DNA from: a virus
DNA: 41,304 nucleotides
IMG/VR virus record: IMGVR_UViG_3300045988_027240
Coordinates: 1 to 41,304 of that record
Reading direction: 5' to 3' (one strand)
Shown piece by piece: positions 5,683 through 28,551 of this stretch. The notes beneath the pieces were generated by a model. It made no database searches. It was given only the letters and a program-made list of their open reading frames with translations, and had not been told where the DNA came from. Position numbers and translations under genes: made by a program. The number at the start of each line of letters is the position of its first letter. Position 1 is the first letter of the stretch.

Positions 5683-5889
5683 TCAAACTTCTCCCCTGGG
5701 CACCCATACGACCTGATACTTGGACCGCCCGGGGCGTTTTGCTCGTTTCCTGCGGCTGATGGAAGAGGTAACCGTCCCAACGGTGACGCCCGCCATCCGG
5801 GCCAACTCCTCCATGGAATCCGCCACTGCCAGCGGCAGCTCGTACTTATCCGACGTGACCCACAGATACAGGGGCTTGCAGGGATTCAT
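5683..5889 (-). CDS. small phage protein, probable DNA-binding
   Basis: 68 aa, ATGA-coupled to the helicase-methylase stop. YELPLAVADSMEELARMAGVT is HTH-like, and a basic tail follows. Confidence 0.45.
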   Translation of the reverse strand: MNPCKPLYLWVTSDKYELPLAVADSMEELARMAGVTVGTVTSSISRRKRAKRPGRSKYQVVWVPRGEV

Positions 5890-8387
5890 AGGCCACCTCC
5901 CACCAGATCAAACAGGGAAATGTTCCTGTCCTCTTCCTCGTACTCCTTCAGATACCCCACGGCATCCCGGAAATAGCCGTCGTTCAGCTCGATGGTGTAC
6001 CCCCGCCGCCCGGCCTTCATGGCTTCCAGGGCAACGGTGCCCAGGCCGCCGAAGGGGTCCAGCACCAGGTCTCCGGGGTTGCTGTACCGATTGATGAGCC
6101 TGTCCACGATGTCCAGCTGCAGGGGGCAGACGTGCATCTGCTGGCGGCGCTGGCTCTGGGTGGTGTTGAGCGTTTTCATCCGGTTGATATCGTCCCAGAC
6201 CTCATCTGTCCAGCTTCCGGGCGCCACCACCATGAAGGTGGCGGGGAGTTTTCCGTCCTCGTCCAGCTCCTTCGCCATCCGGACGTGCTCGGCGTAGTCG
6301 TACACCGTCCCCCGGCTCAAGCGCCGGTAGGCCGCCTGGATCTTCCCGGTGTCCATGGCCATGATCTCCTCTTTGGTGAGGAGCCGATCTCCGGAAGAGC
6401 GCCAGAAGCCGTGGGCGTCGATCTGCCACTGTGCCCGGGTGTAGTCCTCCTTGGATTTCGCCACCGGCTCGTCGGCATAGGCCTTGGACCGGTCCGTGGG
6501 CAGCTTACGGAAAAGCAGGATGTACTCCGGGCATCCGACGCCCATCTTGGAACCGTCCTTGCACTGCTCCGTCCACCCCAGGCGATAGGTCTGGTTGTTC
6601 TCCCGCACCACGTCCGTGACCACGGTTATCATGCCGAAGTAGGCGAAGCCGTGGGCCATGTAATGGCGGATGCACATGGCGTGAAAGGGCTCCATGGTGG
6701 GCATCCCCATCCCCGTGGCGTTGCCGAAGAGGACCCGGTCCTTCACGTGGCAGCAAAACACACGCCCCGGCTTCAGCACCCGCAGCAGATTCGGGCTGAG
6801 GTAGTCCATCTGCTCGAAGAAGCGCCGGGTGTCCTCGTTGTGCCCGAAATCGTTGTAGCTGGGGGTGTACTCGTAATGATTGGAGAATGGGATGGAGGTC
6901 ACAATGAGATCCACGCTGTTTTCCGCCATGCGGGCGGTCTCCTCCACGCAATCGTTGTTGACTGCCGTAAAGTTCTTTCCCTTCACTTCCACTCTCTCAA
7001 CTCCAATGCTCCGGCTCATGCGCTCGGTCTGCGCCGCACCGCTGAGCCCGTATTTCTGGACGATATCCCGCATCCGCTCCTGCATGGCGTTGTGCTGTTT
7101 CCACTTTTCCAGCAGCACCCGGTAGATGGGGTCCTCCGCCTCCATGTAGATGATGTCGATGACCACCGGCTCAGACTGCAGGAAGCGGTATATCCGGTGG
7201 ATGGCCTGAATGAAATCATTGAATTCGTAGTCGATGCCGACGAAGATGGCCCGGTGGCAGTGCCGCTGGAAGTTGCAGCCGGAGCCGGAGAGGCTTTTCT
7301 TCGTGGCGAAGAGCCGGGTCCGTCCTTCGGAGAAGTCGATGACCCGCCGCTCCCGCTCCGCATAGTCCATGCTGCCGTAGATGTCCACGGCCCCCGGCAG
7401 TGCCCGGAGCAGAGCGTGGCGCTCCGCCTCCAGGTCATGCCAGAGGAGGAAGTGGGCCTCCGGGTCACTCTCCACAATCTCCCGGGCCACGGCCACCCTG
7501 GCCTCGATGCTCTCCCGCTTCTCCCGGCTGGCCTCCGCCAGGGAGACCGCAGCGTCATTGGTGAGCTTGTACTGCCCGTCCCGGTCCACTTCCTTGCCGT
7601 AGTCATCCCGGACAACGTGGGTCCGGACCTCCAGCGGCGGCAGGTCATAGCCGGTATCGTCATAGCCCAGGTCGGAGGGCCGCCCGATGAAGAGCGCCCA
7701 GGAAGAGACCCATAGCCAGAACTCATCCTCCTTGTGGGGATAGAGGGTCAGGTTGTTGGCCTTGGTGCTGTCCCGCTGGAAAAATCGGGTCAACGCCTGT
7801 CCGGTGTCCATGATCTCCAGGTATCCGGCGTAGTGGATGAGCTCCTTATACCGGTTGGGGGACGGCGTGGCCGTGGAGACCAGCTTATACTTCACGCCCC
7901 GGAACTTGGGGAGGAACGTCTGGTAGGTCTTGCTCCCGAAGCTCCGCAGCACGGACGCCTCGTCCAGAGCCACGGCCGTAAAGCAGGTCGGGTCGATGTC
8001 CCCGTCCCGCACCCGCTCATAGTTGGTCATCACGATCTCGGCATCTGTCCCGGCCAGGTCCTCCATAGAGGTGATGTAGACCGGGGCGGGATAGCCAAGG
8101 ATCTCCCGGGCGTCTCTGGCGAACTCCTGCCGCACGCCCAGGGGGAGCACGATCAGGGCCCTCCCGCCATCGTGCCGCACGGCCTGATGGCAGAACTCGA
8201 TCTCCTGCACGGTCTTCCCCAGGCCGAAGGATTCAAAGAGCGCCCGGCGTCCGCCCCGCAGAGCCCAGACCACAGCGTCCCGCTGGTGGGGTTTCAACCC
8301 CGGATTGACCTCCCCAGGGTCCAGCTCAAATCCGCTCTCCTTCGCCAGAACGATCTTCGAGCGGAGAAATTCAAGATAGGTTTCCAT
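5886..8387 (-). CDS. SNF2-family helicase fused to a beta-class N6A/N4C DNA methyltransferase
   Basis: Helicase motifs GLGKT, DEAS and QAIHRIYR. Methylase motif IV-like DLIVTSIPF and motif I DPFGGLGT. ATG 8387 has an AAGGAGG SD. Confidence 0.85.
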   Translation of the reverse strand: METYLEFLRSKIVLAKESGFELDPGEVNPGLKPHQRDAVVWALRGGRRALFESFGLGKTVQEIEFCHQAVRHDGGRALIVLPLGVRQEFARDAREILGYPAPVYITSMEDLAGTDAEIVMTNYERVRDGDIDPTCFTAVALDEASVLRSFGSKTYQTFLPKFRGVKYKLVSTATPSPNRYKELIHYAGYLEIMDTGQALTRFFQRDSTKANNLTLYPHKEDEFWLWVSSWALFIGRPSDLGYDDTGYDLPPLEVRTHVVRDDYGKEVDRDGQYKLTNDAAVSLAEASREKRESIEARVAVAREIVESDPEAHFLLWHDLEAERHALLRALPGAVDIYGSMDYAERERRVIDFSEGRTRLFATKKSLSGSGCNFQRHCHRAIFVGIDYEFNDFIQAIHRIYRFLQSEPVVIDIIYMEAEDPIYRVLLEKWKQHNAMQERMRDIVQKYGLSGAAQTERMSRSIGVERVEVKGKNFTAVNNDCVEETARMAENSVDLIVTSIPFSNHYEYTPSYNDFGHNEDTRRFFEQMDYLSPNLLRVLKPGRVFCCHVKDRVLFGNATGMGMPTMEPFHAMCIRHYMAHGFAYFGMITVVTDVVRENNQTYRLGWTEQCKDGSKMGVGCPEYILLFRKLPTDRSKAYADEPVAKSKEDYTRAQWQIDAHGFWRSSGDRLLTKEEIMAMDTGKIQAAYRRLSRGTVYDYAEHVRMAKELDEDGKLPATFMVVAPGSWTDEVWDDINRMKTLNTTQSQRRQQMHVCPLQLDIVDRLINRYSNPGDLVLDPFGGLGTVALEAMKAGRRGYTIELNDGYFRDAVGYLKEYEEEDRNISLFDLVGGGL

Positions 8388-8398
8388 GGGGTCCTCCT

Positions 8399-9223
8399 TC
8401 ACCCGTCGTAACAGCCACACGGAGCACCGCAGAGACAACCACCAGGGCTATCAGGAAATAATTCATCAAAAGTGATCTGTGCATCCTCGAAAGCCTTGTT
8501 CTCCATGAACTCCTTGTAGTAACTCTCCCAGGACCAGTTACGGCCAAGCCCTTTGACATTCACATTGGTTGCTGCGGCCCCGTGCTCAATCGCTACTGCA
8601 CGCTGGAACAAATCCGGGTAGTTCTCCCATAGTGCCTGTATTTCCTTCTTTTTCATGGATGGGCAGAAGAAGCACGAACTTTTCCCTGGCCTCGGAAGCC
8701 CGGCCCGCTCAATCACACGCACACACTCCTCACGGGTCCAGCCCCATTCATAGAGAGGGTAACGATTTTCGTATTTTTTGTTTGCCTCGTCCGCCGGGGC
8801 GGCGTGCTGGATGCGACGGGTCTCCCCAGCATCGTACCCGATGAACTTATGGACGCGCTGGCCACTGGCCCACGCATCCTTGCACGGCTGATAGTTATTG
8901 CAGAACTTTTCCTGCGTCCCTATCTTGTGCTTGAGGGAGCAACGTTTGAAACCGTATGCAATGGATGGCAGTGTTCCGCTGTTGATGCACTCCTGCTCCA
9001 ACGTCAGGCGGTTTCCATCCTTATCGTGGTACTGCACGGAGGTGATTTTCGGAAGCCCGTGCTGTTCCAGCCAGCCATTGAAGGTCTCGATAAACGCATA
9101 GGTGTGCGGCTGCTCCCCTCCGGTATCAGCGAACAGAATCAGGTCTATCGGGATCTTGCGCAGGTACATCCCGATAATCATGGCGGTGCTGTTGGTCCCA
9201 CCGCCGAAAGAAACAATGTTCAT
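8399..9223 (-). CDS. PAPS-reductase-like PP-loop ATP pyrophosphatase
   Basis: PP-loop SFGGGTNS near the N-terminus, plus ADTGGEQPHTY. C-terminal Cys clusters CFFCP and CLCGAPCGC. Internal ATG 9223 was chosen because the upstream track extension is Gly/Pro noise. Confidence 0.75.
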   Translation of the reverse strand: MNIVSFGGGTNSTAMIIGMYLRKIPIDLILFADTGGEQPHTYAFIETFNGWLEQHGLPKITSVQYHDKDGNRLTLEQECINSGTLPSIAYGFKRCSLKHKIGTQEKFCNNYQPCKDAWASGQRVHKFIGYDAGETRRIQHAAPADEANKKYENRYPLYEWGWTREECVRVIERAGLPRPGKSSCFFCPSMKKKEIQALWENYPDLFQRAVAIEHGAAATNVNVKGLGRNWSWESYYKEFMENKAFEDAQITFDELFPDSPGGCLCGAPCGCYDG

Positions 9224-9225
9224 CT

Positions 9226-9588
9226 CTACACCGCCAATCTGTCCATCAGCGCCGCCCAGCGGAGGGTGATCCAGGCGAGGCCCCGGATCTCCCGGTTGAC
9301 CAGCGCCGCCCCCTTGGCCTTGGAAAAGTGCTTGCAATCCGGGGAGAACCATGCTCCGGCTACCGGACGGCCCCGGCAGACCTCCCGTGGGTCGATGTCC
9401 CAGACACTCGCCTGGTAATGCTCGGTGTAAGGGTGGTTGGTCTTGTGCATCAGGATCGCCGCCGGGTCATGGTTGATGGCAGCCGCCACCGTAACGCCCA
9501 GGCCTATCTCGATCCCCGTGGATGCCCCGCCGCCTCCGGCGAAGTTGTCCACGAAGATCTCCTGGTTCATGTCCTCCTGGTATCTCAT
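9226..9588 (-). CDS. C5 cytosine DNA methyltransferase, N-terminal fragment only (motifs I and IV); probable truncated gene
   Basis: DNFAGGGG (motif I) and SPDCKHFSKAKG (motif IV, PC). Stops at 120 aa before ENV/QRR/GN, and no remainder is found in any frame downstream. Confidence 0.65.
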   Translation of the reverse strand: MRYQEDMNQEIFVDNFAGGGGASTGIEIGLGVTVAAAINHDPAAILMHKTNHPYTEHYQASVWDIDPREVCRGRPVAGAWFSPDCKHFSKAKGAALVNREIRGLAWITLRWAALMDRLAV

Positions 9589-9696: not shown

Positions 9697-9903
9697 TCAT
9701 TTCTTCGGCGTCGCCCGCATCTCGATCCACTCATCCAGGAGCCGGGTGAAGATTTGGTAGACCGGCTTGATGCCCCCCTGGATGCAAAGGCCGAAGGGGT
9801 AGAGCCCCTGCTGGATGCCGGCGCCAAGCGTGGTGTTGGTGATCCGCATACCGTGCTGCCGTAGGTACTCTGTGGCCTCGTTGAGCGACATGGTCTCGAT
9901 CAT
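9697..9903 (-). CDS. small HTH DNA-binding protein (excisionase/MerR-like)
   Basis: 68 aa, ATGA-coupled to the cro-like gene. LNEATEYLRQHGMRITNTTL resembles excisionase-family HTHs. Confidence 0.45.
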   Translation of the reverse strand: MIETMSLNEATEYLRQHGMRITNTTLGAGIQQGLYPFGLCIQGGIKPVYQIFTRLLDEWIEMRATPKK

Positions 9904-10121
9904 GCGCTCTCACCCGCCCTTGCTTCCTGCGCCGCCCGGATGGCGGCGATGATCTCCTCGTCGGTGACGTGGTACAGCTTCGCCAGCTTCGGAACAAACT
10001 TGCTTGCGATGCCGTTGGCTCCTCGCTCCCACTGGGAAACGGCATTCTGGGAAACATACAGCTTCCGTGCGACATAGGGCTGTTTCAGCCCCGCCGCCTC
10101 CCGGAGCTCCTTCAATGTCAA
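9900..10121 (-). CDS. Cro-like XRE-family HTH regulator
   Basis: TTG 10121 lies 6 nt after AAAGGAGGG. LKELREAAGLKQPYVARKLYVSQNAVSQWERG is a canonical XRE HTH. The track ATG at 10214 has no SD and would overlap a promoter. Confidence 0.7.
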   Translation of the reverse strand: MTLKELREAAGLKQPYVARKLYVSQNAVSQWERGANGIASKFVPKLAKLYHVTDEEIIAAIRAAQEARAGESA

Positions 10122-10155
10122 ATGAAACCCTCCTTTCAATATGAAGAACTTCAGC

Positions 10156-10184
10156 TTGACAAACAGAGATACGGCCGCTATTAT
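10156..10184 (+). promoter_or_regulatory. sigma-70/SigA-type promoter, rightward (TTGACA-17-TATTAT)
   Basis: Read directly: TTGACA at 10156..10161, 17-nt spacer, TATTAT at 10179..10184. Confidence 0.6.
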
Positions 10185-10235
10185 GTAAGTGTCAGCCAAC
10201 AAAATATCGGCCATAGGCCCGCAGAACGGAGAAAT

Positions 10236-10256
10236 CCGAGGGGGGCTTGGTTTTTT
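10236..10256 (+). terminator. weak hairpin plus T6 (CCGAG-GGGGG-CTTGG-TTTTTT)
   Basis: 5-bp stem including one G-U pair, followed by six T. About 65 nt downstream of the rightward promoter. Confidence 0.3.
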
Positions 10257-10282
10257 GTTGCCTTGTGAAGTTCTGTAAGGCT

Positions 10283-10311
10283 ATTATAGCTTTGATTTTC
10301 GCAGTTGTCAA
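10283..10311 (-). promoter_or_regulatory. consensus promoter, leftward, for the cro-like/early operon (TTGACA-17-TATAAT)
   Basis: On the minus strand: TTGACA at 10311..10306, 17-nt spacer, TATAAT at 10288..10283. Perfect consensus. Confidence 0.7.
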
Positions 10312-10329
10312 CGGAATAACTGCGTTTTT
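10300..10329 (+). terminator. hairpin CGCAGTT-11 nt-AACTGCG followed by TTTTT
   Basis: 7-bp stem then a T5 run on the plus strand. Overlaps the -35 of the leftward promoter, so it could also be an operator. Confidence 0.3.
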
Positions 10330-10393
10330 CACAGTTTTGTCATTCTAAACAAAAAGTCGCCTTTCATTTTGGCGGCTTTGAAAGGTTTATTGT

Positions 10394-11317
10394 ATGTCAG
10401 ACGATTTTAAAATTCCGTTTTTTAAGTCGCAAAGAAACAGTCTGGCGTTGCATTTATTTTTGGATGCAGACAGGGCCAAAGAAAAAGCAAACAAAGCCAG
10501 GACAATTTCAGAATTTATAGAAAATTACGACATAATACTCGACCGGTTCAAAAAATTATCTTTAATGAACGGAAAAGTAACAAGCGTAAAGGGCGATTTG
10601 CAGATAGAGTTCTGGCGGCTTGAAACTGAATTCCAAAAACATTTCTATGACGCAATAGAACGAAGTGGAGATCAAATCATAAAAAACCGCAAGGGCTTGT
10701 ACAAATACGATGACGAATATATTAGGCGTAGCATTAAACAATTTGGAATCGATATAAAGAAATATTTTTCCCGCGGAGACGCCAAAACGCAAGAATTTGC
10801 AAAAGCTAAATACCGTTATGTCTGCCACGAATGCGGAATGCTAGATTTAATCAATGAAACTCAACATCGGCGGGAAAATTCCGATTTAGACATAGAAGCA
10901 ATTATAAAAGAAGAAGAAAATTGGAGGAGGCAGCAGCAAGGCATTGCAGCCCCCGAGGATGAATTAAATAAAGTGGACTTAATGAATGGCCCTGACTTTG
11001 AACATTGGTGCGCCAAAATTCTTGGAAAAAATGGATTTGAAAAAGTCGCAGTAACGCCGGAAAGCGGAGATCAAGGAGTAGATGTTTTAGCGGAAAAAGA
11101 TGGCATTAAATATGCTATCCAATGCAAATGCTATTCTTCCGATTTGGGGAATACGCCAATCCAAGAGGTAAACGCAGGAAAAGCCATTTATCGTTGCCAT
11201 ATCGGAGTTGTTATGACAAATCGCTTTTTCACATCAGGCGCAAAGGAAGCGGCTGAAGCTACTGGCGTTTTACTTTGGGACAGAAACAAGCTTAAAGAGC
11301 TAATTAACAGTATTTAA
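10394..11317 (+). CDS. Mrr_cat (PD-(D/E)xK restriction-endonuclease-like) domain protein with unknown ~190-aa N-terminal domain
   Basis: C-terminal GPDFEHWCAKILGKNGFEKV…SGDQGVDVLAEKDG…YAIQCKCY…FTSGAKEAA matches the Mrr catalytic domain pattern. Clearly AT-richer than the rest of the genome. Confidence 0.75.
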   Translation: MSDDFKIPFFKSQRNSLALHLFLDADRAKEKANKARTISEFIENYDIILDRFKKLSLMNGKVTSVKGDLQIEFWRLETEFQKHFYDAIERSGDQIIKNRKGLYKYDDEYIRRSIKQFGIDIKKYFSRGDAKTQEFAKAKYRYVCHECGMLDLINETQHRRENSDLDIEAIIKEEENWRRQQQGIAAPEDELNKVDLMNGPDFEHWCAKILGKNGFEKVAVTPESGDQGVDVLAEKDGIKYAIQCKCYSSDLGNTPIQEVNAGKAIYRCHIGVVMTNRFFTSGAKEAAEATGVLLWDRNKLKELINSI

Positions 11318-11332
11318 TTAGGAAATAATTGT

Positions 11333-11794
11333 ATGGCAAAACGTGATATTGTAAATGTCGACTGTGAAAAAACCATTTTGCTTATAAAAGCAAACGAATG
11401 GAATAATTCTTCCTTTTCAAGGAAAGTCGGAAAATATAGTTCGTGGTTTGGAGAGGTACTAAGGGGGCACAATCTCCCATCCCCAGAAGAAGCCGCCCGC
11501 ATGTGCATCCTCCTAAAAACTACCCCCGAAGAAATCCTGCTGCACGAAGGCGAGACAGATGAAGAAACGGCCAAGTGCCTGGAGGATATCCAGCGGGTGA
11601 AAGAGCTGGTGGAGGAGCTGACGGCGAAGAGCGAAGAAAAGCGCTCCGCCAAAGGCGAAGCGCTTAGTCCTGTGGAGCAAGAAATTTTTGATTTTATTTC
11701 CGCCGCATCCGTCGAAGAAATTGCGGAAGTGCTGCGATTTATCGGATATCTGAAAAGCAAAAGGGAGCAAGCTCATGGACCTTCCGAAATTTGA
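11333..11794 (+). CDS. CI-like HTH regulator (candidate prophage repressor)
   Basis: 153 aa. The N-terminal region (…NNSSFSRKVGKYSSWFGEVLRGHNLPSPEEAARMCILLKTTPEEILL) is XRE-like, and the C-terminal half is acidic and helical. Confidence 0.55.
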   Translation: MAKRDIVNVDCEKTILLIKANEWNNSSFSRKVGKYSSWFGEVLRGHNLPSPEEAARMCILLKTTPEEILLHEGETDEETAKCLEDIQRVKELVEELTAKSEEKRSAKGEALSPVEQEIFDFISAASVEEIAEVLRFIGYLKSKREQAHGPSEI

Positions 11795-12002
11795 AGAATT
11801 CAAGAAGCAAATAAACCTTGATTCTGCCGCCTACGATTTTAACACGCTCATTTCTGCGGCTATGCCTTCTGGAACGGTTCCATTCACTCCGGAGCAAATT
11901 TCTGCTCTGGCCGCATGCTCTGTTTCGGCGGCTCTTGCGCTTCTTCAACAATACCACACATGGCTTTCCGAAACGCTTCAGTCATCGCAGCCAGAGGAGT
12001 AA
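11775..12002 (+). CDS. hypothetical 75-aa protein (coding strand ambiguous)
   Basis: AAGGGAG SD 7 nt before the ATG. Fully overlapped by an SD-led 43-aa ORF on the minus strand. Confidence 0.35.
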   Translation: MDLPKFEEFKKQINLDSAAYDFNTLISAAMPSGTVPFTPEQISALAACSVSAALALLQQYHTWLSETLQSSQPEE

Positions 12003-12148
12003 CGCTTTCCGCCATTTTTCATCCTCCTAATTTGACCAAGCAGAGCTATTTTTTCCTCATCAGAAAGCAAAAGCACTGCGGCTTTCAGCTTCTCCCGCAC
12101 GTCTTCCGGCGCAAGCGCCGAAGATCCCGCACACAACAGTTCCTTCAA
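11978..12148 (-). CDS. candidate 56-aa ORF, possible remnant of a regulator C-terminus
   Basis: TTG start. The translation …APEDVREKLKAAVLLLSDEEKIALLGQIRRM… is protein-like, while the plus strand here has no credible ORF. Weak SD. Confidence 0.25.
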   Translation of the reverse strand: MKELLCAGSSALAPEDVREKLKAAVLLLSDEEKIALLGQIRRMKNGGKRYSSGCDD

Positions 12149-12261
12149 TTCCCCGCCTTCTTTCCTCTTAGTTTATACAATTCGCAATCGCAAGTCAACA
12201 ACAAGATTCCAATATGTAATACTATATCGATTGGGGAGCCAATCGCAATTGTGTTCTGATT

Positions 12262-12295
12262 GGCCCCTCCGCCGCCTGCAACCGGCGGAGGGGCC
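12262..12295. terminator. 13-bp perfect GC-rich inverted repeat (GGCCCCTCCGCCG / CGGCGGAGGGGCC), 8-nt loop, no U-tract
   Basis: Read directly. Sits between the AT-rich block and the membrane-anchored XRE gene. Confidence 0.4.
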
Positions 12296-12374
12296 GTGCA
12301 GCAGATGTCCTGAGACCACTTATCTGCTACGCCTACATGGTAGCAGATTCCAGCCCGTCGGCGCTATGCCCGCA

Positions 12375-12445
12375 CCGGTAAAATTGGAATTTTTATGGAA
12401 AATGATTTTACCGGCAGGGGCGCTTTGTGCCCGTGCTGGTAAAAT
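12375..12445. promoter_or_regulatory. three GGTAAAAT motifs (two forming a 10-bp inverted repeat CCGGTAAAAT…ATTTTACCGG): candidate operators
   Basis: Copies at 12377..12384 (forward), 12405..12412 (reverse) and 12438..12445 (forward). All lie upstream of ATG 12471. Confidence 0.45.
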
Positions 12446-12470
12446 TTTGGAAATTGGAGGCGGATATACC

Positions 12471-13022
12471 ATGTCAGCGATCCAGGAGCTTGCACCGTAT
12501 ATCGAGGATTACCCACATCGGGTGAGAGCCGCAAAGGAGGAAAAGCACTACACCATCAGCGATATCATCGAGCGCTCCGGCGTCTCGGCATCGGCTGTCA
12601 ACAAGCTGCTGGCGGGAACGCAGATGGAGCCAAAGCTCTACAACTCGGCGGCCCTCTGCAAGGTCCTGGGCCTCTCCATGGACGAGCTCTTCGGCCTCGT
12701 TGCCCCGGAGGGCAGCGACCGGCAGGCCAGAGAGGAGATGCACCAGCTCCAGCTGGAGAATGTCCGCCTGGAGGCGGAGAATCGCATGGGGGCGGAGCGG
12801 GTGGACGCCCAGCGCCCGGTGATCCTGGCCCTGCTGGTCCTCTGCACCGCTCTCTGCGCGGCGCTGGCCGGCTACATCGCCATTGACGCCCAGATCAGCA
12901 ACGCCGGTCTGATCCGGGGCGGAGACCCCACCGTTGTGGCATGGGGCATCATCGTCCTGCTGGTCCTGGCCGTCGCCGTCGTCGCCTGGGCCATGGTCCG
13001 CGCCATCCGGCGCGGGAAATAA
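12471..13022 (+). CDS. membrane-anchored XRE-family HTH regulator
   Basis: TGGAGG SD before ATG 12471. HTH YTISDIIERSGVSASAVNKLLAG, then a coiled coil (QLQLENVRLEAENR), then two hydrophobic helices (VILALLVLCTALCAALAGYI and WGIIVLLVLAVAVVAWAMV). Confidence 0.7.
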   Translation: MSAIQELAPYIEDYPHRVRAAKEEKHYTISDIIERSGVSASAVNKLLAGTQMEPKLYNSAALCKVLGLSMDELFGLVAPEGSDRQAREEMHQLQLENVRLEAENRMGAERVDAQRPVILALLVLCTALCAALAGYIAIDAQISNAGLIRGGDPTVVAWGIIVLLVLAVAVVAWAMVRAIRRGK

Positions 13023-13024
13023 CC

Positions 13025-14104
13025 ATGGAGACCTGCATCAGATGTCGCGCGGAGCTGCCGCCTGGGGCGCTCTATTGCCCCGCCTGCGGGAAAAAGCAGG
13101 TGCCGGAAAAGCGCAAGGCCCTCAAGCGGGCCAACGGCACCGGCACGGTCTACCGCCTGCAGGGCAGGCGGAAGCGCCCCTGGGTGGCGGCAAAAAACCG
13201 GGTAGTCATCGGCTACTACGCCAAGAAAACGGAGGCCCTAGAGGCTCTGGAGCGCCTCTCCGGCGTCGATATCTCCGAGCGCTACAATATGACTTTTTCT
13301 CAAGTTTTCGACGCCTGGAAGCAGGAGCACTACCAGGAGATCGGCCCGCACGGCATCGAATCCTATGAGCAGGCGTACAAAGTCTTTGCTCCGCTGCACG
13401 GTCGCAAATTCCGCGAGCTGCGCACGGCAGACTTCCAGACCGTCCTGGATGCCCACATGGGCAAGTCTCACTCCACCGTCTCAAAGTATAAGCAGCTCAT
13501 CACGCAGATGTCCGCCTGGGCCATGCGCGAGGAGCTCGTCACCACAAATTTCGCCAGATTCGCCAAGTTGCCAGAGCAAAAAAAGACGGAAAAAGAGGTG
13601 TTTTCCGCCTCCGACATCGCTAAGCTGCAGGCGGACGATAGCGAGGCCGCCAGGATCGTGCTGATGCTGATCTACACCGGCATGCGCATCGGCGAGCTCT
13701 TCTCTCTGCCCCGCAGCGCTTATTATGGCACCTACGTCATCGGCGGCGAGAAGACCGAGGCCGGGCGCAACCGGATTATCCCTATCTGGCCGGAGGGCCG
13801 GGAACACTTTGCCTACTTCGCCTACTTCTCCTCGCCGGGCGGCCTGCTGCTGGAGAGCTACAAGGGGCACCGGACAACCAACAACTACCGCAAGCGAGAC
13901 TACTACCCGCTGCTGGAGCGCCTGGGCATTGCCCGGAAAACGCCCCACGCTACCCGCCACACCTACGCCAGCATGGCGGTGACTGCGGATATCCGGCCGG
14001 AGCTCCTGCAAAAGATGCTTGGCCATGCAAACTACGCCACGACGGCCAACATCTACCAGCACTTCGACCCGCAGGAGCTGGTCCGGGCCGTAGAGAATCG
14101 CTAG
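13025..14104 (+). CDS. int: tyrosine recombinase (phage integrase) with N-terminal zinc ribbon
   Basis: CIRCRAEL…CPACG ribbon. Catalytic signatures TGMRIGELFSL (R), HATRHTYAS (HxxR) and LGHANYATTANIYQH (Y). Reads toward attP. Confidence 0.9.
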   Translation: METCIRCRAELPPGALYCPACGKKQVPEKRKALKRANGTGTVYRLQGRRKRPWVAAKNRVVIGYYAKKTEALEALERLSGVDISERYNMTFSQVFDAWKQEHYQEIGPHGIESYEQAYKVFAPLHGRKFRELRTADFQTVLDAHMGKSHSTVSKYKQLITQMSAWAMREELVTTNFARFAKLPEQKKTEKEVFSASDIAKLQADDSEAARIVLMLIYTGMRIGELFSLPRSAYYGTYVIGGEKTEAGRNRIIPIWPEGREHFAYFAYFSSPGGLLLESYKGHRTTNNYRKRDYYPLLERLGIARKTPHATRHTYASMAVTADIRPELLQKMLGHANYATTANIYQHFDPQELVRAVENR

Positions 14105-15995: not shown

Positions 15996-16217
15996 TCATC
16001 TCAGGAAACGTGCGAACTCCTGCGCCTGGCGCTGGAGCTGCTGGAACTGATCCTGGCTCATGCGGCCGTCGGCCAGCATCTCCTGGATCTGCTGCTGGGC
16101 CCGCTGCGGCGTCATGCCGGCGGCAAATTTGCGGAACTCCGCGATCATGGCCAGGGGATTGTTACTCGGCCTTGGGCTTGCGCTGCGGCTTAGCATCTCC
16201 ATCATCGGATTTGCCAC
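15996..16217 (-). CDS. small Gln-rich helical protein
   Basis: GTG 16217 lies 7 nt after GGAGGAG. 73 aa (…QRAQQQIQEMLADGRMSQDQFQQLQRQAQEFARFLR). Overlaps the upstream gene's end. Confidence 0.5.
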   Translation of the reverse strand: MANPMMEMLSRSASPRPSNNPLAMIAEFRKFAAGMTPQRAQQQIQEMLADGRMSQDQFQQLQRQAQEFARFLR

Positions 16218-16551
16218 TCAGCATCTCCTCCAATCTGCGCACGCGATCCTCCAGACTGTTGACATCCACCGGAGCCGCCGCCTGGTAGGGCGCCACGGTG
16301 TACGGGGTGACGGTGGCATAGCCAGCGCCGTCCGTCTGCTTGAGCCACACGATAGGGTCGTTCTCGTCCATCAGCAGGATGGAGCTGTTAGGGGCCATGC
16401 GGAAGGCGTCAGCGCCATTGCGGCCGTTGACGCGGGTAATCTGGCCCCCAAAGGGCTGCGGCCCTCCTACGGGGCTCTGAGGGCCCACAGAGGGGTATCC
16501 GCCGTAGGGGCTGCCGTACGGCGACGGCTGGTAAGGGTTGTAGTATCCCAT
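16162..16551 (-). CDS. protein with a Pro/Gly/Tyr-rich N-terminus and a conserved C-terminal domain
   Basis: AAGGAGG SD. MGYYNPYQPSPYGSPYGGYPSVGPQSPVGGPQPFGG followed by ITRVNGRNGADAFRMAPNSSILLMDENDPIVWLK. First gene of the accessory operon. Confidence 0.6.
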   Translation of the reverse strand: MGYYNPYQPSPYGSPYGGYPSVGPQSPVGGPQPFGGQITRVNGRNGADAFRMAPNSSILLMDENDPIVWLKQTDGAGYATVTPYTVAPYQAAAPVDVNSLEDRVRRLEEMLSGKSDDGDAKPQRKPKAE

Positions 16552-16581
16552 AGCGCACCTCCTTGTCTGCCCTTATGGTAC

Positions 16582-16611
16582 AAAAAATCCGGACAGTCAA
16601 ACTGCCCGGAT
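16582..16611 (-). terminator. rho-independent terminator on the minus strand, immediately upstream of the operon's RBS
   Basis: Minus strand: ATCCGGGCAG-TTTGA-CTGTCCGGAT (10-bp stem with one G-U pair), then TTTTTT. Only 30 nt separate it from ATG 16551. Confidence 0.6.
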
Positions 16612-16688
16612 TCTGCCCGCATTCTGCGGGGATGGCAAAGCGCACAAAAGCCGCCGCCGGTTTTGTGCAGCTCTACAAACCTCAAAAA

Positions 16689-16707
16689 ATACCCCAATTT
16701 GGGGTAT
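16689..16707. promoter_or_regulatory. operator palindrome 1: ATACCCCAA-T-TTGGGGTAT
   Basis: Perfect 9+1+9 dyad. The second copy is centred 31 bp downstream. Confidence 0.7.
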
Positions 16708-16713
16708 TTTCTC

Positions 16714-16741
16714 TTGACAATACCCCAAATTGGGGTATAAT
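16714..16741 (+). promoter_or_regulatory. consensus promoter TTGACA-16-TATAAT for the plus-strand accessory operon
   Basis: TTGACA at 16714..16719, TATAAT at 16736..16741. The spacer is filled by palindrome 2. Confidence 0.75.
16720..16738. promoter_or_regulatory. operator palindrome 2: ATACCCCAA-A-TTGGGGTAT
   Basis: Same half-sites as palindrome 1. Lies between the -35 and -10 and overlaps the -10. Confidence 0.7.
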
Positions 16742-16784
16742 AATAAATGTAATCAAGAGGGGCACAGCCCAGGAGGATAAAAAA

Positions 16785-16976
16785 ATGAAGAACACTATGT
16801 GGTATGCGGTTATGCGGGACAACGACGATACCGATTGGGGCACCGGCAGCAACAACATGGACGAGGCCATCGAGATGGCCAAGACGTACCGCGCCAACGG
16901 GTACGAGGACGCTTACATCGCCGTGATCGACGACGAGGGCGACCCCATCTGCGTGGACGAGATCCGGGATTTTTGA
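16785..16976 (+). CDS. 63-aa highly acidic protein (candidate anti-defence protein)
   Basis: AGGAGG 8 nt before ATG 16785. 16 Asp/Glu versus 5 Lys/Arg (counted). The upstream part of the track ORF is the promoter region. Confidence 0.6.
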   Translation: MKNTMWYAVMRDNDDTDWGTGSNNMDEAIEMAKTYRANGYEDAYIAVIDDEGDPICVDEIRDF

Positions 16977-16989
16977 GGAGAAAAGCGAC

Positions 16990-17241
16990 ATGTATTTTTG
17001 GCGATATGTCAATTTTGATACCGATGAGCAGGACAACTGCTGCGGCGTTTGCGATAGCATCGATTTGGCTCGCAACTGGGCCAAAAAGACTTGGGAGCGG
17101 CAATCCGCCAAGGGATCTTGTCGTGTGGAACTCTGCGAGATCGATACTCAGCTACACTCTACAGATTTGGCATATGCCTTACACAACACCGACAGCAAGA
17201 TCTCTATGCTCGCACAGGTTATAGAGAGATGGGAGCGATGA
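16990..17241 (+). CDS. 83-aa acidic Cys-containing protein, unknown function
   Basis: GAGGAG SD. Motifs CCGVCD and CRVELC. Its stop is overlapped by the next start (ATGA). Confidence 0.55.
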   Translation: MYFWRYVNFDTDEQDNCCGVCDSIDLARNWAKKTWERQSAKGSCRVELCEIDTQLHSTDLAYALHNTDSKISMLAQVIERWER

Positions 17242-17582
17242 TGGACGATAAATTCAGCGCGCTTTTCAGCGCTGCGCTAAAGACGGATGATCGGGATGAG
17301 TATATCTCCGATTGGGCCCTTTCCTCCGAATGGGGAGACGCCGAGGACGCCGAGATTCCCTCCCAGCGGATCAGTGATCTTGGCGCCCTCTGGGACGTGG
17401 CCCACGTCACCATCCGGGACCTTCGGGCGCACACCGGGCTTACTAGGACGGCCTTCGCCCTCCGCTACCTGATCCCGTACCGCTCCGTGGAGAATTGGGA
17501 GCGGGGCGACAGCCAGTGTCCGGATTACGTCCGTCTCCTGCTGGCCCAGGTCACAGGCTTCTACCACCGGCCGGAGGCGTAA
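17238..17582 (+). CDS. HTH (XRE-like) regulator, Aca-like position
   Basis: ATG 17238 is ATGA-coupled. C-terminal TIRDLRAHTGLTRTAFALRYLIPYRSVENWERGDSQCP is an XRE/antitoxin-type HTH. Confidence 0.65.
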   Translation: MMDDKFSALFSAALKTDDRDEYISDWALSSEWGDAEDAEIPSQRISDLGALWDVAHVTIRDLRAHTGLTRTAFALRYLIPYRSVENWERGDSQCPDYVRLLLAQVTGFYHRPEA

Positions 17583-17585
17583 GCG

Positions 17586-18290
17586 ATGGATCAAAAGAAA
17601 AGAGTGGTCCACCGCATCGAGCCCGGCCAGCGCTACGGCAGGCTGACCGTTGTCGCCAAGACGGACCGACGCGTCTCAAACCGGGTCGTCTGGGAGTGCC
17701 GTTGTGACTGCGGGAATACAACCCATGTCACCTCGAACCACCTGGCAAACGGGAACACCAAGAGCTGCGGCTGCGCCCGGACCGGCACAAACCTGCTGGA
17801 CCTGTCCGGGCAGCGTTTCGGGCGGCTCACGGTGCTGCGCCGGACGGACCGCCACATGGGCCACAGCGTCATCTGGGAGTGCCTCTGCGACTGCGGAAAT
17901 ACCGCCTACGTCGCCTCCACCCATCTGCGCAAGGGGAACACCAAGAGCTGTGGCTGTCTTTCCTCCGAGGTCCACCAGGATTCGTTTCGCCCCGCCAGGG
18001 AAAAGAGAGAGCTGGACTACATCGACGGGACCGACGTGAGGGGGCTTATGCAGTCGCCACGCAGGAATAATACGAGCGGGGCCGTCGGCGTCTCGTATGA
18101 TCGATCTGTGCGCCTGTGGAAAGCGGAGATTCGTTTCAAGAAACACCGCTACTACCTTGGATCGAGCCGGGAGAAGGAGGTCGCCGTCGCCATCCGGAAG
18201 GAGGCTGAGAAGCGTATCCACGGGAAGTTTCTGGAGTGGTATTATCAGGAGTTCCCGGAGCGGAAGCCGGAAAAAGAAGCCCTAAAATAA
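17586..18290 (+). CDS. AP2-domain DNA-binding protein with duplicated Cys-rich module
   Basis: Two copies of GxRxGRLTV…WECxCDCGNT…GNTKSCGC. C-terminal AP2 signature TSGAVGVSYDRSVRLWKAEIRFKKHRYYLGS. GGAGG SD. Confidence 0.7.
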   Translation: MDQKKRVVHRIEPGQRYGRLTVVAKTDRRVSNRVVWECRCDCGNTTHVTSNHLANGNTKSCGCARTGTNLLDLSGQRFGRLTVLRRTDRHMGHSVIWECLCDCGNTAYVASTHLRKGNTKSCGCLSSEVHQDSFRPAREKRELDYIDGTDVRGLMQSPRRNNTSGAVGVSYDRSVRLWKAEIRFKKHRYYLGSSREKEVAVAIRKEAEKRIHGKFLEWYYQEFPERKPEKEALK

Positions 18291-19956: not shown

Positions 19957-20946
19957 TTAGTGCAACTCAATAGACGAGACAACGCCGTTGGCACCTAGCC
20001 AAAGACCGCATTCGTCCCCCAAGGAATTGCGCAGCTTAATAATCTGGTGCTTTGCGGACAAATGCAGCGATTTTGTCCACGCTGCTCCGTGGAGGCGCAA
20101 GTACACGCCTATGCCAGGAGAACTGAAGCCTATTGTAGTGCTCATTCCTTTGAGCTGAAGTGCACAGTCGCCAGCACGTGTGGCAACGATCCACTCAGCA
20201 CCACCAGCGTAGCAACCGTCTCCAGAACGCAGTTCGCCATGATCCTGCGAGTTGTTTTGATCGATTGCGTATGCAGATTTCACCCCATCGAAGGCGACAG
20301 CATCATCAGATACTTTGTAGTATTTAAACCCGTTGTAGATGAAATGATCTCGCCCGTCGGTATCTCCGGTCCAGGAATACTCGTGCTCCACGGTCACGGT
20401 ATCATATACGTTGGATAGATCAACGTACTTCGCCGGGATCTGTACCACCTCAGTGATATCCGGATGTGTCAGCGAGCGGCAATACGTCTCACTGTCTACA
20501 TATATCATGTAGACGCCGGGATGCTCCCAATATGCGTTAAGCGCAGTAATTGGGCGGTATACGACCAGGGCGAATTCGCCAATAATTGTAAAACCATCGC
20601 CTTGGCCAAGGCCTGCAGCCTCAAAAGAACCGTACTCCTTCTCGACACCAGAAAGTACAGCCGAAACAGTGCTATTGCGAAGCTCGAACAAAGTGGGCGT
20701 CAAATCGGATACTCGGACAAAGGATGTATCGCCCAGATTGACGGTCTCTCGATCTCCGATTGTCCCATCCCACGAAATGCTTACAGCTGGATATTCCACA
20801 TCATAGCCATAGCTCTGTCCTTTCGTCCACAGCCTCCCGTCCGCATCTACGCCAACGGGCTCCGTCATCTCTTTTGTTTTCGGGCCCGGTCTCGCCAACT
20901 TGAAAGAAATTGCTTGGCACATCAGCCGCAAATTCTGCTTATTCAT
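19957..20946 (-). CDS. hypothetical 329-aa protein, AT-richer than the flanks (possible exchangeable receptor-binding or accessory module)
   Basis: GTGAGGGG SD and ATG start. No recognisable motif. Composition visibly differs from neighbouring genes. Confidence 0.5.
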   Translation of the reverse strand: MNKQNLRLMCQAISFKLARPGPKTKEMTEPVGVDADGRLWTKGQSYGYDVEYPAVSISWDGTIGDRETVNLGDTSFVRVSDLTPTLFELRNSTVSAVLSGVEKEYGSFEAAGLGQGDGFTIIGEFALVVYRPITALNAYWEHPGVYMIYVDSETYCRSLTHPDITEVVQIPAKYVDLSNVYDTVTVEHEYSWTGDTDGRDHFIYNGFKYYKVSDDAVAFDGVKSAYAIDQNNSQDHGELRSGDGCYAGGAEWIVATRAGDCALQLKGMSTTIGFSSPGIGVYLRLHGAAWTKSLHLSAKHQIIKLRNSLGDECGLWLGANGVVSSIELH

Positions 20947-26501: not shown

Positions 26502-28535
26502 TCACACCCCCGTAAGGCTCACGCCGATGCGGTTTCCTTCGGCCTTGTTGAGCTGGTACACCACCCGGCCCAGAACGTCCCGGTCAAGCATCAGGACCGC
26601 CTCGCTGCTGCCGCTGTAGCCGCTTTCCGCAAGGGCCTGCTTGAATGCCTGAACCATCGTCGCCAGCGGCGTTTCAATGTTCGTCCCGCTCCGCTGGTCG
26701 CCCAGCACGGCCAAGAACTCCCGGTTTGGCGGGATAACAGCGCCACGGGCCAGAGCTGGGACGCTCCTGTACGTCGGCATACTGTGGGCGGAAATATTGC
26801 CGGTAAAGCTGGGATTCACCAGGGAGACTTTGGAGCCGTACCCTTTCACGGCGGAATCATCGACCTCCGACACAAAGAGCCGGAGAATCAGACCGATGGA
26901 CAGAGAGATCACAAAGGCGGCGCCGGTGCTCACAACGCCCAGCGCTGCCAGCGCAACCCCGAAGGCGCCCGCTACCAGGCCGAGAATGATACCCTGCCCG
27001 ATCTTGCGGAAGGTCTCGGAGCGGTCCTTTGGGTCCTTGTCCAGCTCATAGAGCAGCAGACCGACGGCAAGACCGATAGAGAGGCCAACGACCGTCCCTA
27101 CGCCGGGGGCTACCTTGCTTCCGATCACGATACCCAGGAGAGCGCAGAGAACGACCATCAGTTCCCGGAAAAGCTCCGGAACGCCGCCCTGCTCCTCCTG
27201 TGCGAAGTCCACCAGGAACAGCCCCAGCACAGCGCCCAGGCTAAAGCCGACGCCAGCGCCCACGATCCCGGTGAAAGCGGCGCCCAGTACGGCCCCGATC
27301 AGGCCCGCAATGACCACCGTCCACATCTCCTTTGCTCCCATCTCATTCTTCCAGTACTCCGGGTCAAAGCCCGTGATGTAAAGCCCGATCATCGCCCCCA
27401 GCGTCAGACCGATCACCGCTCCGGTGAAGCCGCCGAAGGATGCCCCCAGCGTAGCGCCCAGAAGCGCCGTCATGGCCGTCAGCCAGGTCCCCTTGCTCTT
27501 CGGGACAATCTTGCTGTCAAAGCTCCATTTCAGGTCATCGATCACGATATCCATACCGGCCCGAATCGTCCGAAAGACATTGTTGATCTTCTCGAAGAGG
27601 CCGGACAGCTTCTCCAGCATAGGATTTGCGTCCAAATCAAAGTCCGGGCGGATAGCTGATACTCCACCGCCTCCGGAGGAATCCGAGGTCAGACGATTGA
27701 TCTCGTCAAAGGACGCCAGCTGCCGGGACGCCTTCTTTGCCGCGGCGCCCGTGGCGCTGATAGCGTCCGCCTCTTCGTAAAGACCCTTCGCCGCCGCCTC
27801 CATGCTCTTCCTGCTCCGCCCCGTCAGGATGGCCGCAATGGTCATGATCTCCGTTACGATGGCGGAGAGCAGGTTCATGAGCCAGGTGAGCGCCGGAATG
27901 ATATCCTGAAGGATAGGCGCCGCAAAGGTGAGCAGCGCTCCCTTCAGTCGGGCAATCGCCGCAGATGCCTCCGCATTGCCACGTATAACTTCTGCGGTTT
28001 GTTTCCGTAAGGCTGTTAAGGCCGCCGTGATTACGGAGAAGAACAGCGCACTTGCCGCAAGGCTCTTCATGCGCTTCGAGATACCCTGGATTCGCTTTTC
28101 CGCCATCTTCGATGCCTCGGAAAAATTTTGTGCTCCTTTTGCCGCCCGGCCCATTTTATCATAGAGGGCGCCCGCCTTTTCTTTGGCGGCATCCAGTTCA
28201 ATGTTGGCGCTCTGCAACTCATCGTTGATTTTTCCAACCGCACCGTTTATGTGGTTATACTCTGACTGGAGCGTGCGAACACGGCTTGACTGCTCCGAAA
28301 TATCCGCCTTATTGAAAGTCCCGACAGGGGATGCCTGCATATCCACAAGGACTTTCCTGGCCTCAAAAAGCTCCTGTTTAATGGTTTTAAGCCGTTCCTC
28401 CAGGGGCACTTTCTTTGCGCCAAGTTTTACAATCTTCTCTTCCAAAGAGTTGATATTCCTGATTGTTCGATCGAGTTCCTTCTGAAGCTGAGAGTTGTCC
28501 AGACTTGTGCTGAAAATCACTTCGGCGTCAGCCAT
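26502..28535 (-). CDS. tape measure protein
   Basis: 677 aa. N-terminal coiled coil, central Gly/Ala-rich hydrophobic repeats. Located after the tail chaperones. Confidence 0.9.
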   Translation of the reverse strand: MADAEVIFSTSLDNSQLQKELDRTIRNINSLEEKIVKLGAKKVPLEERLKTIKQELFEARKVLVDMQASPVGTFNKADISEQSSRVRTLQSEYNHINGAVGKINDELQSANIELDAAKEKAGALYDKMGRAAKGAQNFSEASKMAEKRIQGISKRMKSLAASALFFSVITAALTALRKQTAEVIRGNAEASAAIARLKGALLTFAAPILQDIIPALTWLMNLLSAIVTEIMTIAAILTGRSRKSMEAAAKGLYEEADAISATGAAAKKASRQLASFDEINRLTSDSSGGGGVSAIRPDFDLDANPMLEKLSGLFEKINNVFRTIRAGMDIVIDDLKWSFDSKIVPKSKGTWLTAMTALLGATLGASFGGFTGAVIGLTLGAMIGLYITGFDPEYWKNEMGAKEMWTVVIAGLIGAVLGAAFTGIVGAGVGFSLGAVLGLFLVDFAQEEQGGVPELFRELMVVLCALLGIVIGSKVAPGVGTVVGLSIGLAVGLLLYELDKDPKDRSETFRKIGQGIILGLVAGAFGVALAALGVVSTGAAFVISLSIGLILRLFVSEVDDSAVKGYGSKVSLVNPSFTGNISAHSMPTYRSVPALARGAVIPPNREFLAVLGDQRSGTNIETPLATMVQAFKQALAESGYSGSSEAVLMLDRDVLGRVVYQLNKAEGNRIGVSLTGV

Positions 28536-28551
28536 GCTTTCACCGTCCTTC

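Follow-up and report, generated by a model that had tools for sequence, protein, structure and literature searches.

What is a nuclease gene of foreign base composition doing at the apparent head of the lysogeny operon of a temperate phage? The question is raised by a 41,304-nt stretch of viral DNA, positions 1 to 41,304 of IMG/VR record IMGVR_UViG_3300045988_027240 (here called the window), in which an open reading frame (ORF) with an ATG start encodes a 307-amino-acid (aa) protein ending in an Mrr-type nuclease domain. The coordinates of the gene and of the surrounding features are collected in Table 1. A preliminary description of this DNA had proposed a prophage-encoded defence gene. The analysis presented here leans, with some reserve, towards a nuclease that is expressed in lysogens and acts on incoming foreign DNA, as superinfection exclusion or defence cargo. 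An anti-phage role, and the manner in which self DNA would be spared, are what we infer from the comparisons below.

The gene has a foreign base composition and is most likely horizontally acquired cargo. Its GC content is 0.389 against a window mean of 0.594 (standard deviation 0.055 in 924-nt windows; z = -3.7), and the lowest-GC stretch of the window falls within it. GC at third codon positions (GC3) is 0.37, compared with 0.76-0.85 in the cro-like gene, the integrase gene, and the methyltransferase gene discussed below. The preliminary description had placed a 307-aa gene first in an AT-rich block from about 10215 to 12230, and both the gene and the block are borne out. GC is 0.378-0.452 in 500-nt windows spanning 10001-11500 and about 0.6 elsewhere, with an intermediate 0.47 for 11333-11794 and the tail to about 12230, where the AT-richness is weaker. 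For the QCKCY-type Mrr subfamily, defined below, the gene has a lower GC content than its flanks at 99% of 78 viral loci and at 94% of 67 genome loci. The exact 307-aa protein is present on 23 metagenome contigs.

The C-terminal part of the protein is a PD-(D/E)XK nuclease domain of the Mrr_cat family. The Pfam match scores 97.6 bits against a cut-off of 21, with residues 196-304 covering positions 3-115 of the 115 in the profile. The catalytic pattern recognized by eye in the preliminary description, GDQGVD…AIQCKCY, is upheld by this match and lies at residues 225-230 and 241-247. Across 79 aligned relatives, no substitution occurs at E203, D226, D230, Q243, C244, K245, or Y247. AlphaFold2, run on the full length with an alignment of 79 sequences, gave a model (mean predicted local distance difference test [pLDDT] of 90.8) in which the domain follows the alpha-beta-beta-beta order, with D230 preceding the strand of residues 231-235 and Q243 and K245 lying within strand 238-245. 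Because these residues are invariant and placed as the catalytic residues of PD-(D/E)XK enzymes, the nuclease appears to be of the active rather than the degenerate type. It is thus probably catalytically competent and would be expected to cleave DNA. For the nuclease core, Foldseek returned AF1548 (1y88; E=3.8e-4, root-mean-square deviation 2.6 Å), the catalytic domains of MspJI (E=7.7e-4) and AspBHI, and Hjc, and the full-length model found matches to the nuclease domain only. The best PADLOC matches are ZorD (E=3e-20), PDC-S02 (E=6e-11), and LmuA (E=3e-7), all over residues ~170-306. Labels in public databases are just "restriction endonuclease" or "HJR/Mrr/RecB family endonuclease".

The preliminary description had found the first ~190 residues unrecognizable. 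The lack of recognizable similarity stands, but the region is actually a folded domain of ~150 residues (the N-domain) followed by a linker of ~40 residues. Profile searches of residues 1-190 returned no match in Pfam, PHROGs, NCBIfam, or the PADLOC hidden Markov models (HMMs). Nor did the N-domain find a relative in the PDB by sequence or fold, where its best sequence-profile hit has an E of 0.3 and its best Foldseek hit an E of 0.04 with a TM-score of 0.23. The top Foldseek entries are generic helical bundles (MP1, 14-3-3, and spectrin) with TM-scores of 0.2-0.38. Predicted alone, the N-domain reaches a pLDDT of 94.8 and a pTM of 0.86, with helices at residues 11-33, 38-57, 69-100, 107-123, and 130-146, and these models describe a confidently folded and previously undescribed domain. 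Near-invariant positions are A18, A32, N33, F41, Y45, D46, Q81, H83, D86, and R90, of which N33, D46, Q81, H83, D86, and R90 make up a polar set. The linker carries 4 lysine or arginine (K+R) residues vs 11 acidic ones (D+E). Its position is the site at which FtsK_gamma domains are inserted in relatives, where the linker ranges from 14 to 118 aa and contains PF09397 in its long forms. The N-domain was also considered as a fragment of an FtsK linker, and this was rejected, the N-domain profile having no match in neighbouring FtsK proteins.

The family to which the protein belongs was delimited by an N-domain profile seeded with the window protein, combined with an Mrr_cat domain carrying the motifs A[IV]QCKCY and LGN[TK]P[VI]QE (the QCKCY-type subfamily). 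The N-domain profile finds only 211 proteins among 1.84 billion cluster representatives. Both domains occur together in 200 proteins, and 108 of 137 newly retrieved N-domain representatives carry the same Mrr subfamily, most others being fragments. As judged from these searches, the N-domain defines a small family that is almost always fused to this one type of nuclease. Full-length relatives range from 95% identity down to ~40%, and in distant ones the Mrr domain is 56-78% identical and the N-domain 24-40%. Among 185,579 species genomes, 380 carry the subfamily, almost exclusively Clostridia (Oscillospiraceae, Lachnospiraceae, and Acutalibacteraceae), and it was also detected on 199 IMG/VR viral contigs. 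The N-domain has no match in the INPHARED phage collection, and megablast of the late region of the window found no related cultured phage; from its relatives, the host is presumably a member of the Oscillospiraceae or other Clostridia. Searches of the literature on FtsK gamma with Mrr, on PDC-S02, and on nucleases in Oscillospiraceae lysogeny modules turned up no description of the family or of the N-domain.

Most relatives differ from the window protein in being predicted membrane proteins. Transmembrane (TM) helices are predicted ahead of the N-domain in 136 of the 200 proteins (68%), and two-TM forms account for 91 (46%). All 91 fit an N-in/C-in topology by the positive-inside rule (597 vs 39 K+R), which would place the nuclease on the cytoplasmic side. 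No hydrophobic 19-mer that could serve as a TM helix exists in the window protein or its nearest relatives (P0001-P0011), while relatives at 57-66% identity (P0012, P0017, and P0019) do have TM helices, and the anchor therefore seems to be readily gained and lost. Several members also contain one or two FtsK_gamma domains, and of 80 genome loci retrieved, about 30 encode such a fusion. With neither the TM helices nor the gamma domain, the window protein represents a soluble form. Two further architectures place the N-domain with other partners. P0161 consists of two TM helices, the N-domain, and an FtsK/SpoIIIE motor, with a separate Mrr_cat gene after it and an ImmA-like gene before it, and P0232 joins the N-domain to an OB fold. 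One 455-aa protein, P0026, is predicted to have an ImmA/IrrE-like HExxH peptidase fused to N-domain and Mrr, probably as a read-through of adjoining genes, though it again shows ImmA-like and nuclease genes side by side.

One alternative is that the protein acts as a modification-dependent (type IV) restriction enzyme in the manner of E. coli Mrr. The N-domain would then read a modified base absent from the host and prophage, and the nuclease would cut incoming DNA that contains it. The catalytic domain is that of Mrr, its core resembles the modification-dependent MspJI and AspBHI, and there is a weak PADLOC match to mREase_IV (E=0.004). As with type IV enzymes, the gene stands alone, and no methyltransferase adjoins it in any context inspected in the window and its relatives (this negative covers Pfam-annotated contexts; an HMM count across all loci was too insensitive to extend it). 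The term Mrr-type, as used in the preliminary description, nevertheless holds for the catalytic domain only and not for the whole protein. The winged-helix reader domain Mrr_N has no Pfam match in residues 1-190 at E<=0.1, and with the reader of true Mrr missing, nothing implies that cleavage depends on modification. Nor does the N-domain resemble solved readers (SRA, wH, PUA/EVE, and SBD) by sequence or fold; in other members it is joined to an FtsK motor or to an OB fold, and it mostly follows a TM anchor, for which a stalk or scaffold is the better fit. Mrr_cat itself has effector roles outside type IV systems, in ZorD, LmuA, and Avs. The phage also encodes a modification enzyme of its own. 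The earlier report of DNA-modifying genes is supported by an 850-aa protein with an N6_N4 methyltransferase domain, encoded ~2 kb from the nuclease in the opposite-strand early operon, and by weaker PAPS-reductase-like and C5-methyltransferase-like ORFs. On induction, this early methyltransferase would expose the phage to self-targeting by a type IV enzyme. A type IV reading is, in our view, decidedly unlikely. The 850-aa gene lies on the lytic strand, and prophage DNA may therefore be unmethylated in lysogens and methylated after induction, a timing that bears on any modification-dependent model of the nuclease.

The position of the gene points to expression in lysogens. In agreement with the preliminary description, it lies on the lysogeny strand between a cro-like gene and a CI-like gene: the integrase and two helix-turn-helix (HTH) genes share its strand, and the cro-like gene, the first of the minus-strand early operon, is divergent from it. 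The start codon of the CI-like gene follows the nuclease stop codon after a gap of just 15 nt. The CI-like gene encodes a 153-aa protein that aligns with partners from four other phages, its homologue in L020 giving faint HTH_31 and HTH_3 matches, and it is probably a repressor. The comparison with rex that had been drawn for this position did not hold for the gene order, as the nuclease gene is promoter-proximal and upstream of the CI-like gene, the reverse of the cI-rexAB order. A scan for consensus sigma-70-type promoters gave 10 sites in the region vs 3.3 expected, including one directed towards the nuclease gene and a perfect one towards the cro-like gene. This site and the 15-nt gap are consistent with co-transcription of the nuclease and CI-like genes, and the nuclease would then be expressed in lysogens. 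The two promoter-like sites are face-to-face, with a predicted transcript overlap of ~85 nt that recalls the switch geometry of 186/P2-type phages.

Several smaller elements surround this module. A possible third operon gene, a 75-aa plus-strand ORF at 11775-12002, was dropped as it is not conserved in sister phages. Two minus-strand ORFs of 56 and 43 aa at 11884-12148 are convergent with the CI-like gene and overlap the 75-aa ORF; the 43-aa ORF has an AGGAGG ribosome-binding site, and the 56-aa ORF has a weak homologue in L020, a 50-aa ORF in the corresponding position with 39% identity. Nothing meaningful emerged when 9800-13100 was searched against Rfam and for tandem repeats, with no ToxI-like RNA or riboswitch. 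Further downstream, the HTH_3 gene at 12471-13022 starts a high-GC HTH-integrase pair. An HTH_3 protein with TM helices just upstream of the integrase is conserved in all related phages (L001, L007, L020, and L022). A membrane-tethered HTH regulator beside int is unusual, and the two HTH proteins are both repressor candidates.

Comparison with related phages indicates that the place occupied by the nuclease gene is variable. The recurring order is a cro-like HTH gene on the minus strand followed, on the plus strand, by the nuclease, a 135-153-aa HTH-like protein, variable small genes, the HTH_3-TM gene, and the integrase. The order cro-like, nuclease, CI-like is seen in four phage backbones (the window and three others), and the identical 307-aa protein is found in two different replication-module backbones, L001 and L003. 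Among 18 IMG/VR homologues of the 153-aa gene, ORFs were called at 13 loci representing ten distinct sequences (L103-L120). The gene directly upstream of the homologue differs by lineage and amounts to at least nine unrelated genes (Table 1). Nine of the ten occupants are clearly AT-rich, with a GC of 0.33-0.46 vs 0.51-0.55 for the phage, and the tenth (L103) is marginally lower, at 0.51 vs 0.54. Because different AT-rich genes precede the CI-like homologue in each lineage, the slot between the cro-like and CI-like genes is a cargo hotspot in which the nuclease is one alternative occupant.

These observations bear on a nuclease with a role in the phage life cycle, such as host-DNA degradation, recombination or junction resolution, or processing at induction. 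PD-(D/E)XK enzymes include Holliday-junction resolvases, and the protein does show a weak RusA-like PHROG match (E=0.002) and Foldseek matches to archaeal Hjc (E ~0.04-0.1). Moreover, in one group of viral contigs (L152-L172) no obvious repressor is near the gene, and its neighbours are of structural type. Such a role is set against the orientation of the gene, which shares the lysogeny strand with the repressor and integrase and diverges from the early lytic operon, and against sister phages in which unrelated genes fill the slot, which argues that the gene is dispensable for the phage cycle. A solitary chromosomal copy also exists, and the membrane anchoring of most relatives is a poor fit to a recombination enzyme. 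We consider a life-cycle function very unlikely.

Alternatively, the nuclease could be the toxin of an addiction pair, with the downstream 153-aa HTH protein as its antitoxin, stabilizing the prophage. A toxin gene followed by that of an Xre-type antitoxin is the order of higBA and mqsRA. Here the gap is 15 nt, the pairing occurs in five phage loci, the nuclease is potentially toxic, and the annotators of phage Jekyll named the neighbouring genes toxin and antitoxin. However, homologues of the 153-aa protein follow at least nine unrelated proteins, and the two genes do not co-vary: the identical nuclease is paired with differing partner C-terminal halves in the window and L003, while in L020 similar partner C-termini accompany a nuclease that is only 57% identical. 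The Pseudoflavonifractor homologue described below has no such partner, and the 153-aa protein looks like a phage repressor. With a promiscuous partner and no co-variation, the toxin-antitoxin pair was rejected, and we hold it to be the least probable of the explanations considered.

Further associations with lysogeny modules come from the neighbourhoods of relatives. Of 79 viral loci, 41 have a same-strand integrase downstream, as do 26 of 73 genome loci. In L018, a ToxN gene (7794-8294) is found, within a prophage lysogeny module, immediately 3' of a gene for a two-TM N-domain-Mrr protein and is followed by a serine recombinase; ToxN is a toxin of type III toxin-antitoxin and abortive infection systems. 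Xre or ImmA-like genes are directly upstream in Roseburia phage Jekyll, L126, L131, and L202. The original suggestion of a defence gene is thus strengthened by the variable AT-rich slot, by the ToxN and ImmA/Xre neighbours, and by the invariant catalytic residues, while the function itself is something we infer.

Taken as defence or exclusion cargo, the gene, as the first of the lysogeny operon, would be co-transcribed with that of the CI-like repressor, and the helical N-domain would hold the nuclease as a stalk, an oligomerization module, or a targeting module. The nuclease would cut incoming DNA, that of superinfecting phages and possibly conjugative DNA, to the benefit of prophage and host. 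In most relatives, the N-domain and nuclease would be tethered to the inner membrane face by two TM helices, often with an FtsK-gamma domain that binds double-stranded DNA. Since most relatives are membrane-tethered, often with this domain, action at or near the point of DNA entry is suggested. A model for such action is SNIPE, a membrane nuclease made up of a TM anchor, DUF4041, and GIY-YIG domains that cuts phage DNA during injection, and removal of its TM anchor made it toxic to the host (PMC13190303). By this precedent some restraint must exist for the soluble, gamma-less window protein as well, perhaps a partner bound by the N-domain, a trigger, low expression, or a substrate preference. 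A more specific version of this proposal would see the family as the counterpart of SNIPE in Clostridia and their phages: nucleases at the cytoplasmic membrane face, placed there by TM helices or, in TM-less forms such as the window protein, docked through the N-domain on a DNA translocase such as FtsK/SpoIIIE or on the entry channel of a phage or conjugative element, that cut double-stranded DNA on entry and distinguish self from non-self by location and not by sequence or modification. The FtsK-gamma domain or FtsK motor of some members would then grip or reel in the entering DNA. We regard this version as unlikely.

Several points weigh against a lysogen-expressed nuclease aimed at incoming DNA. 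The membrane-entry model is built on the TM anchor and the gamma domain, neither of which the window protein has, and the restraint that a soluble, constitutively expressed nuclease would need, by analogy with SNIPE, is unexplained. No PADLOC model matched the full length of the protein, the matches being to the nuclease domain only. The promoter calls are consensus matches only, and terminator-like hairpins at 10236-10250 and 10300-10324 on the plus strand lie between the plus-strand promoter-like site and the nuclease gene. Finally, not all homologues reside in phages. Pseudoflavonifractor capillosus carries a TM-less 279-aa homologue (WP_295369305.1) between an HD-domain gene and glmU-prs-pth-mfd, and full FtsK/SpoIIIE genes flank or precede the N-domain-Mrr gene in L041 (2660-9045) and L050 (2172-6804). 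These chromosomal and FtsK-adjacent settings leave room for a cellular role.

Such a role would be in DNA handling tied to FtsK/SpoIIIE translocases, for instance the clearing or cleavage of DNA at the septum or forespore membrane, with phage copies borrowed to manipulate the process. The gene fusions to FtsK_gamma, the fusion of the N-domain to an FtsK/SpoIIIE motor in P0161, and the flanking genes of L041 and L050 all speak for it, as does an FtsK gene near the nuclease in L085; ~60% of genome loci, moreover, have no detected integrase within 6 kb. The patchy distribution of the subfamily among species genomes and its presence on viral contigs are difficult to reconcile with a cellular function. 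Even chromosomally the gene is AT-rich compared with its flanks, with a GC of 0.36 vs 0.65 for the P. capillosus homologue (L013), which suggests accessory mobile DNA rather than a core gene, and the P. capillosus gene is a one-gene foreign islet. P0161 is itself encoded in a lysogeny-type context, after an ImmA-like gene, and the gamma domain is missing from the window protein. A cellular function carries only a slim probability. The link to the FtsK/SpoIIIE translocase nevertheless appears repeatedly in these sequences and is unexplained, and no account of an Mrr subfamily linked to FtsK/SpoIIIE was found in the literature. Other arrangements of the same kind include an ImmA-like gene, a gene for two TM helices, N-domain, and FtsK motor, and an Mrr_cat gene in succession (L202, 929-3636), and a partial FtsK motor fused to Mrr (L089, 4642-6351). 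The Pseudoflavonifractor islet (L013-L017 and L027; gene 6001-6840) has no mobile-element genes within 6 kb.

Elsewhere in the window, 8399-9588 on the minus strand holds a 120-aa ORF in which C5-methyltransferase motifs I and IV (FAGGGG and SPDCKHFS) are the only ones present. This ORF overlaps, in another reading frame, the beginning of the PAPS-reductase-like ORF (317 aa raw, 274 aa as called). It may represent a methyltransferase that has been truncated, or else a gene that is split or frameshifted in an unusual way. Related phages (L003, L009, and L010) likewise have PAPS_reduct genes in their early regions. A four-ORF island at 16060-18290 on the plus strand, without a Pfam match, is set within the otherwise minus-strand late region. 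Patches of lower GC (0.49-0.51) occur at 19957-20946 on the minus strand and at 28001-29000, one of them over a 329-aa gene of no assigned function beside the holin and endolysin, again with no Pfam match. The island and these patches may be additional morons.

Table 1. Features of the 41,304-nt window (positions, strand, and basis of each call) and occupants of the corresponding slot in related phages
Feature	Position or locus	Strand	Basis
850-aa protein: weak SNF2-related N-terminal region and N6_N4 methyltransferase domain	5886-8438	-	Pfam
cro-like gene of HTH_3/HTH_31 type (73 aa in gene calls from identical contigs)	9900-10121	-	Pfam HTH_31, E=7e-11
AT-rich block, from the intergenic control region over the nuclease and CI-like genes to a ~440-nt small-ORF tail	10122-12230		GC windows
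Promoter-like TTGACA-17-TATTAT (11/12) towards nuclease gene	10156-10184	+	Consensus match only
Perfect promoter-like TTGACA-17-TATAAT towards cro-like gene	10283-10311	-	Consensus match only
Whole nuclease gene: helical N-domain, linker, and Mrr_cat nuclease, 307 aa	10394-11317	+	ORF; AlphaFold2 model
N-terminal all-alpha domain, residues ~5-155	10394-10873	+	AlphaFold2 of domain alone; alignment
Acidic low-confidence linker, residues 161-195 (~158-195 in the AlphaFold2 model)	10874-10978	+	pLDDT 56-70
Mrr_cat PD-(D/E)XK nuclease, residues 196-304	10979-11305	+	Pfam PF04471, E=6.3e-28
Catalytic candidates E203; D226/D230; Q243-x-K245	11000-11002; 11069-11083; 11120-11128	+	Alignment
153-aa CI-like protein, Xre/CI-type HTH-like N-terminal half	11333-11794	+	Weak HTH_31, E=0.013; alignment
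183-aa HTH_3 protein ending in two TM helices	12471-13022	+	Pfam; gene calls on L001
Tyrosine integrase, 359 aa as called	13025-14104	+	Pfam Phage_integrase
Slot occupant: two-TM Mrr without N-domain	L119
Slot occupant: HSDR_N-type PD-(D/E)XK protein	L120
Slot occupants: Ada-Zn membrane protein; Zn-ribbon membrane protein
Slot occupants: five proteins of 222-367 aa with no Pfam or PADLOC match	e.g., L114/L115 (347-367 aa), L107/L108, L113, L117

A single-gene nuclease as prophage cargo is of a known kind; what is new here is the N-domain, the architectures with FtsK-gamma and TM helices, and the hotspot. In gut Oscillospiraceae and Lachnospiraceae, temperate phages are abundant and have hardly been studied by experiment, and the benefit that their prophages bring to the host is largely obscure. 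A hotspot at the head of the lysogeny operon can be mined for exclusion and defence genes in phages of gut Clostridia, and the slot occupants of L103-L120 are a ready list of candidates. The N-domain, for its part, always accompanies a DNA-handling module, whether Mrr nuclease, FtsK motor, or OB fold. If DNA is cut at entry, the "spatial" discrimination between self and non-self described for SNIPE would reach Gram-positive bacteria and another nuclease fold. If the protein is merely another solitary nuclease, the result is a routine improvement in annotation.

The closest parallels to the window protein come from known single-gene systems, although it belongs to neither the SNIPE nor the Epona family. 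Epona is a single-gene anti-phage system of chromosomal-integron cassettes in Vibrio cholerae whose activity has been shown (bioRxiv 10.1101/2024.07.02.601686). It shares with the window protein an Mrr_cat effector within a single protein on a small mobile cassette, and with relatives such as P0017, P0046, and L119, and the two-TM forms of the N-domain family at large, the combination of two TM helices and Mrr_cat. The window protein, however, has no TM helix, the ~150-aa helical domain is not described for Epona, the TM part of Epona is holin-like, and a Vibrio integron and a Clostridia prophage differ in both phylum and carrier; beyond the shared Pfam domain, the comparison is one of descriptions. 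The likeness to SNIPE is one of layout: a variable N-terminal anchor (present in 66% of SNIPE homologues and 68% here) with a TM-less minority, a less conserved middle domain, and a highly conserved C-terminal cytoplasmic nuclease, much as SNIPE combines a conserved effector with a diverged non-catalytic domain (PMC13190303). There is no homology, as the nuclease here is PD-(D/E)XK and DNA binding in relatives would occur via FtsK_gamma and not DUF4041. Neither DUF4041 nor GIY-YIG was found in the window protein (Pfam, E<=0.1), and residues 1-165 have no PADLOC match. E. coli Mrr, MspJI, and AspBHI share the Mrr_cat or PD-(D/E)XK core with its D...(Q/E)xK residues and are likewise solitary, without a methyltransferase partner, but their readers are a winged helix (Mrr) or SRA-like (MspJI), whereas here an all-alpha domain takes that place. 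ZorD of Zorya, LmuA of Lamassu, and PDC-S02 have the nuclease module in common with the window protein, which differs in having no SNF2 helicase, SMC partner, or match to them over residues 1-165. In terms of genomic position, the relevant comparisons are lambda rexAB and the superinfection exclusion (Sie) genes, which are non-essential, are expressed from the prophage, and exclude other phages. Like the nuclease gene, they lie within the repressor and integrase module, in a slot whose content varies between related phages. The rexAB genes lie downstream of cI, whereas the nuclease gene is upstream of the CI-like gene, and Sie proteins are not nucleases but small membrane proteins that block injection. 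By position, the Sie genes of Gram-positive lysogeny modules, for example lactococcal Sie2009 (PMC7693887), would seem to offer a better precedent for the nuclease gene than cI-rexAB.

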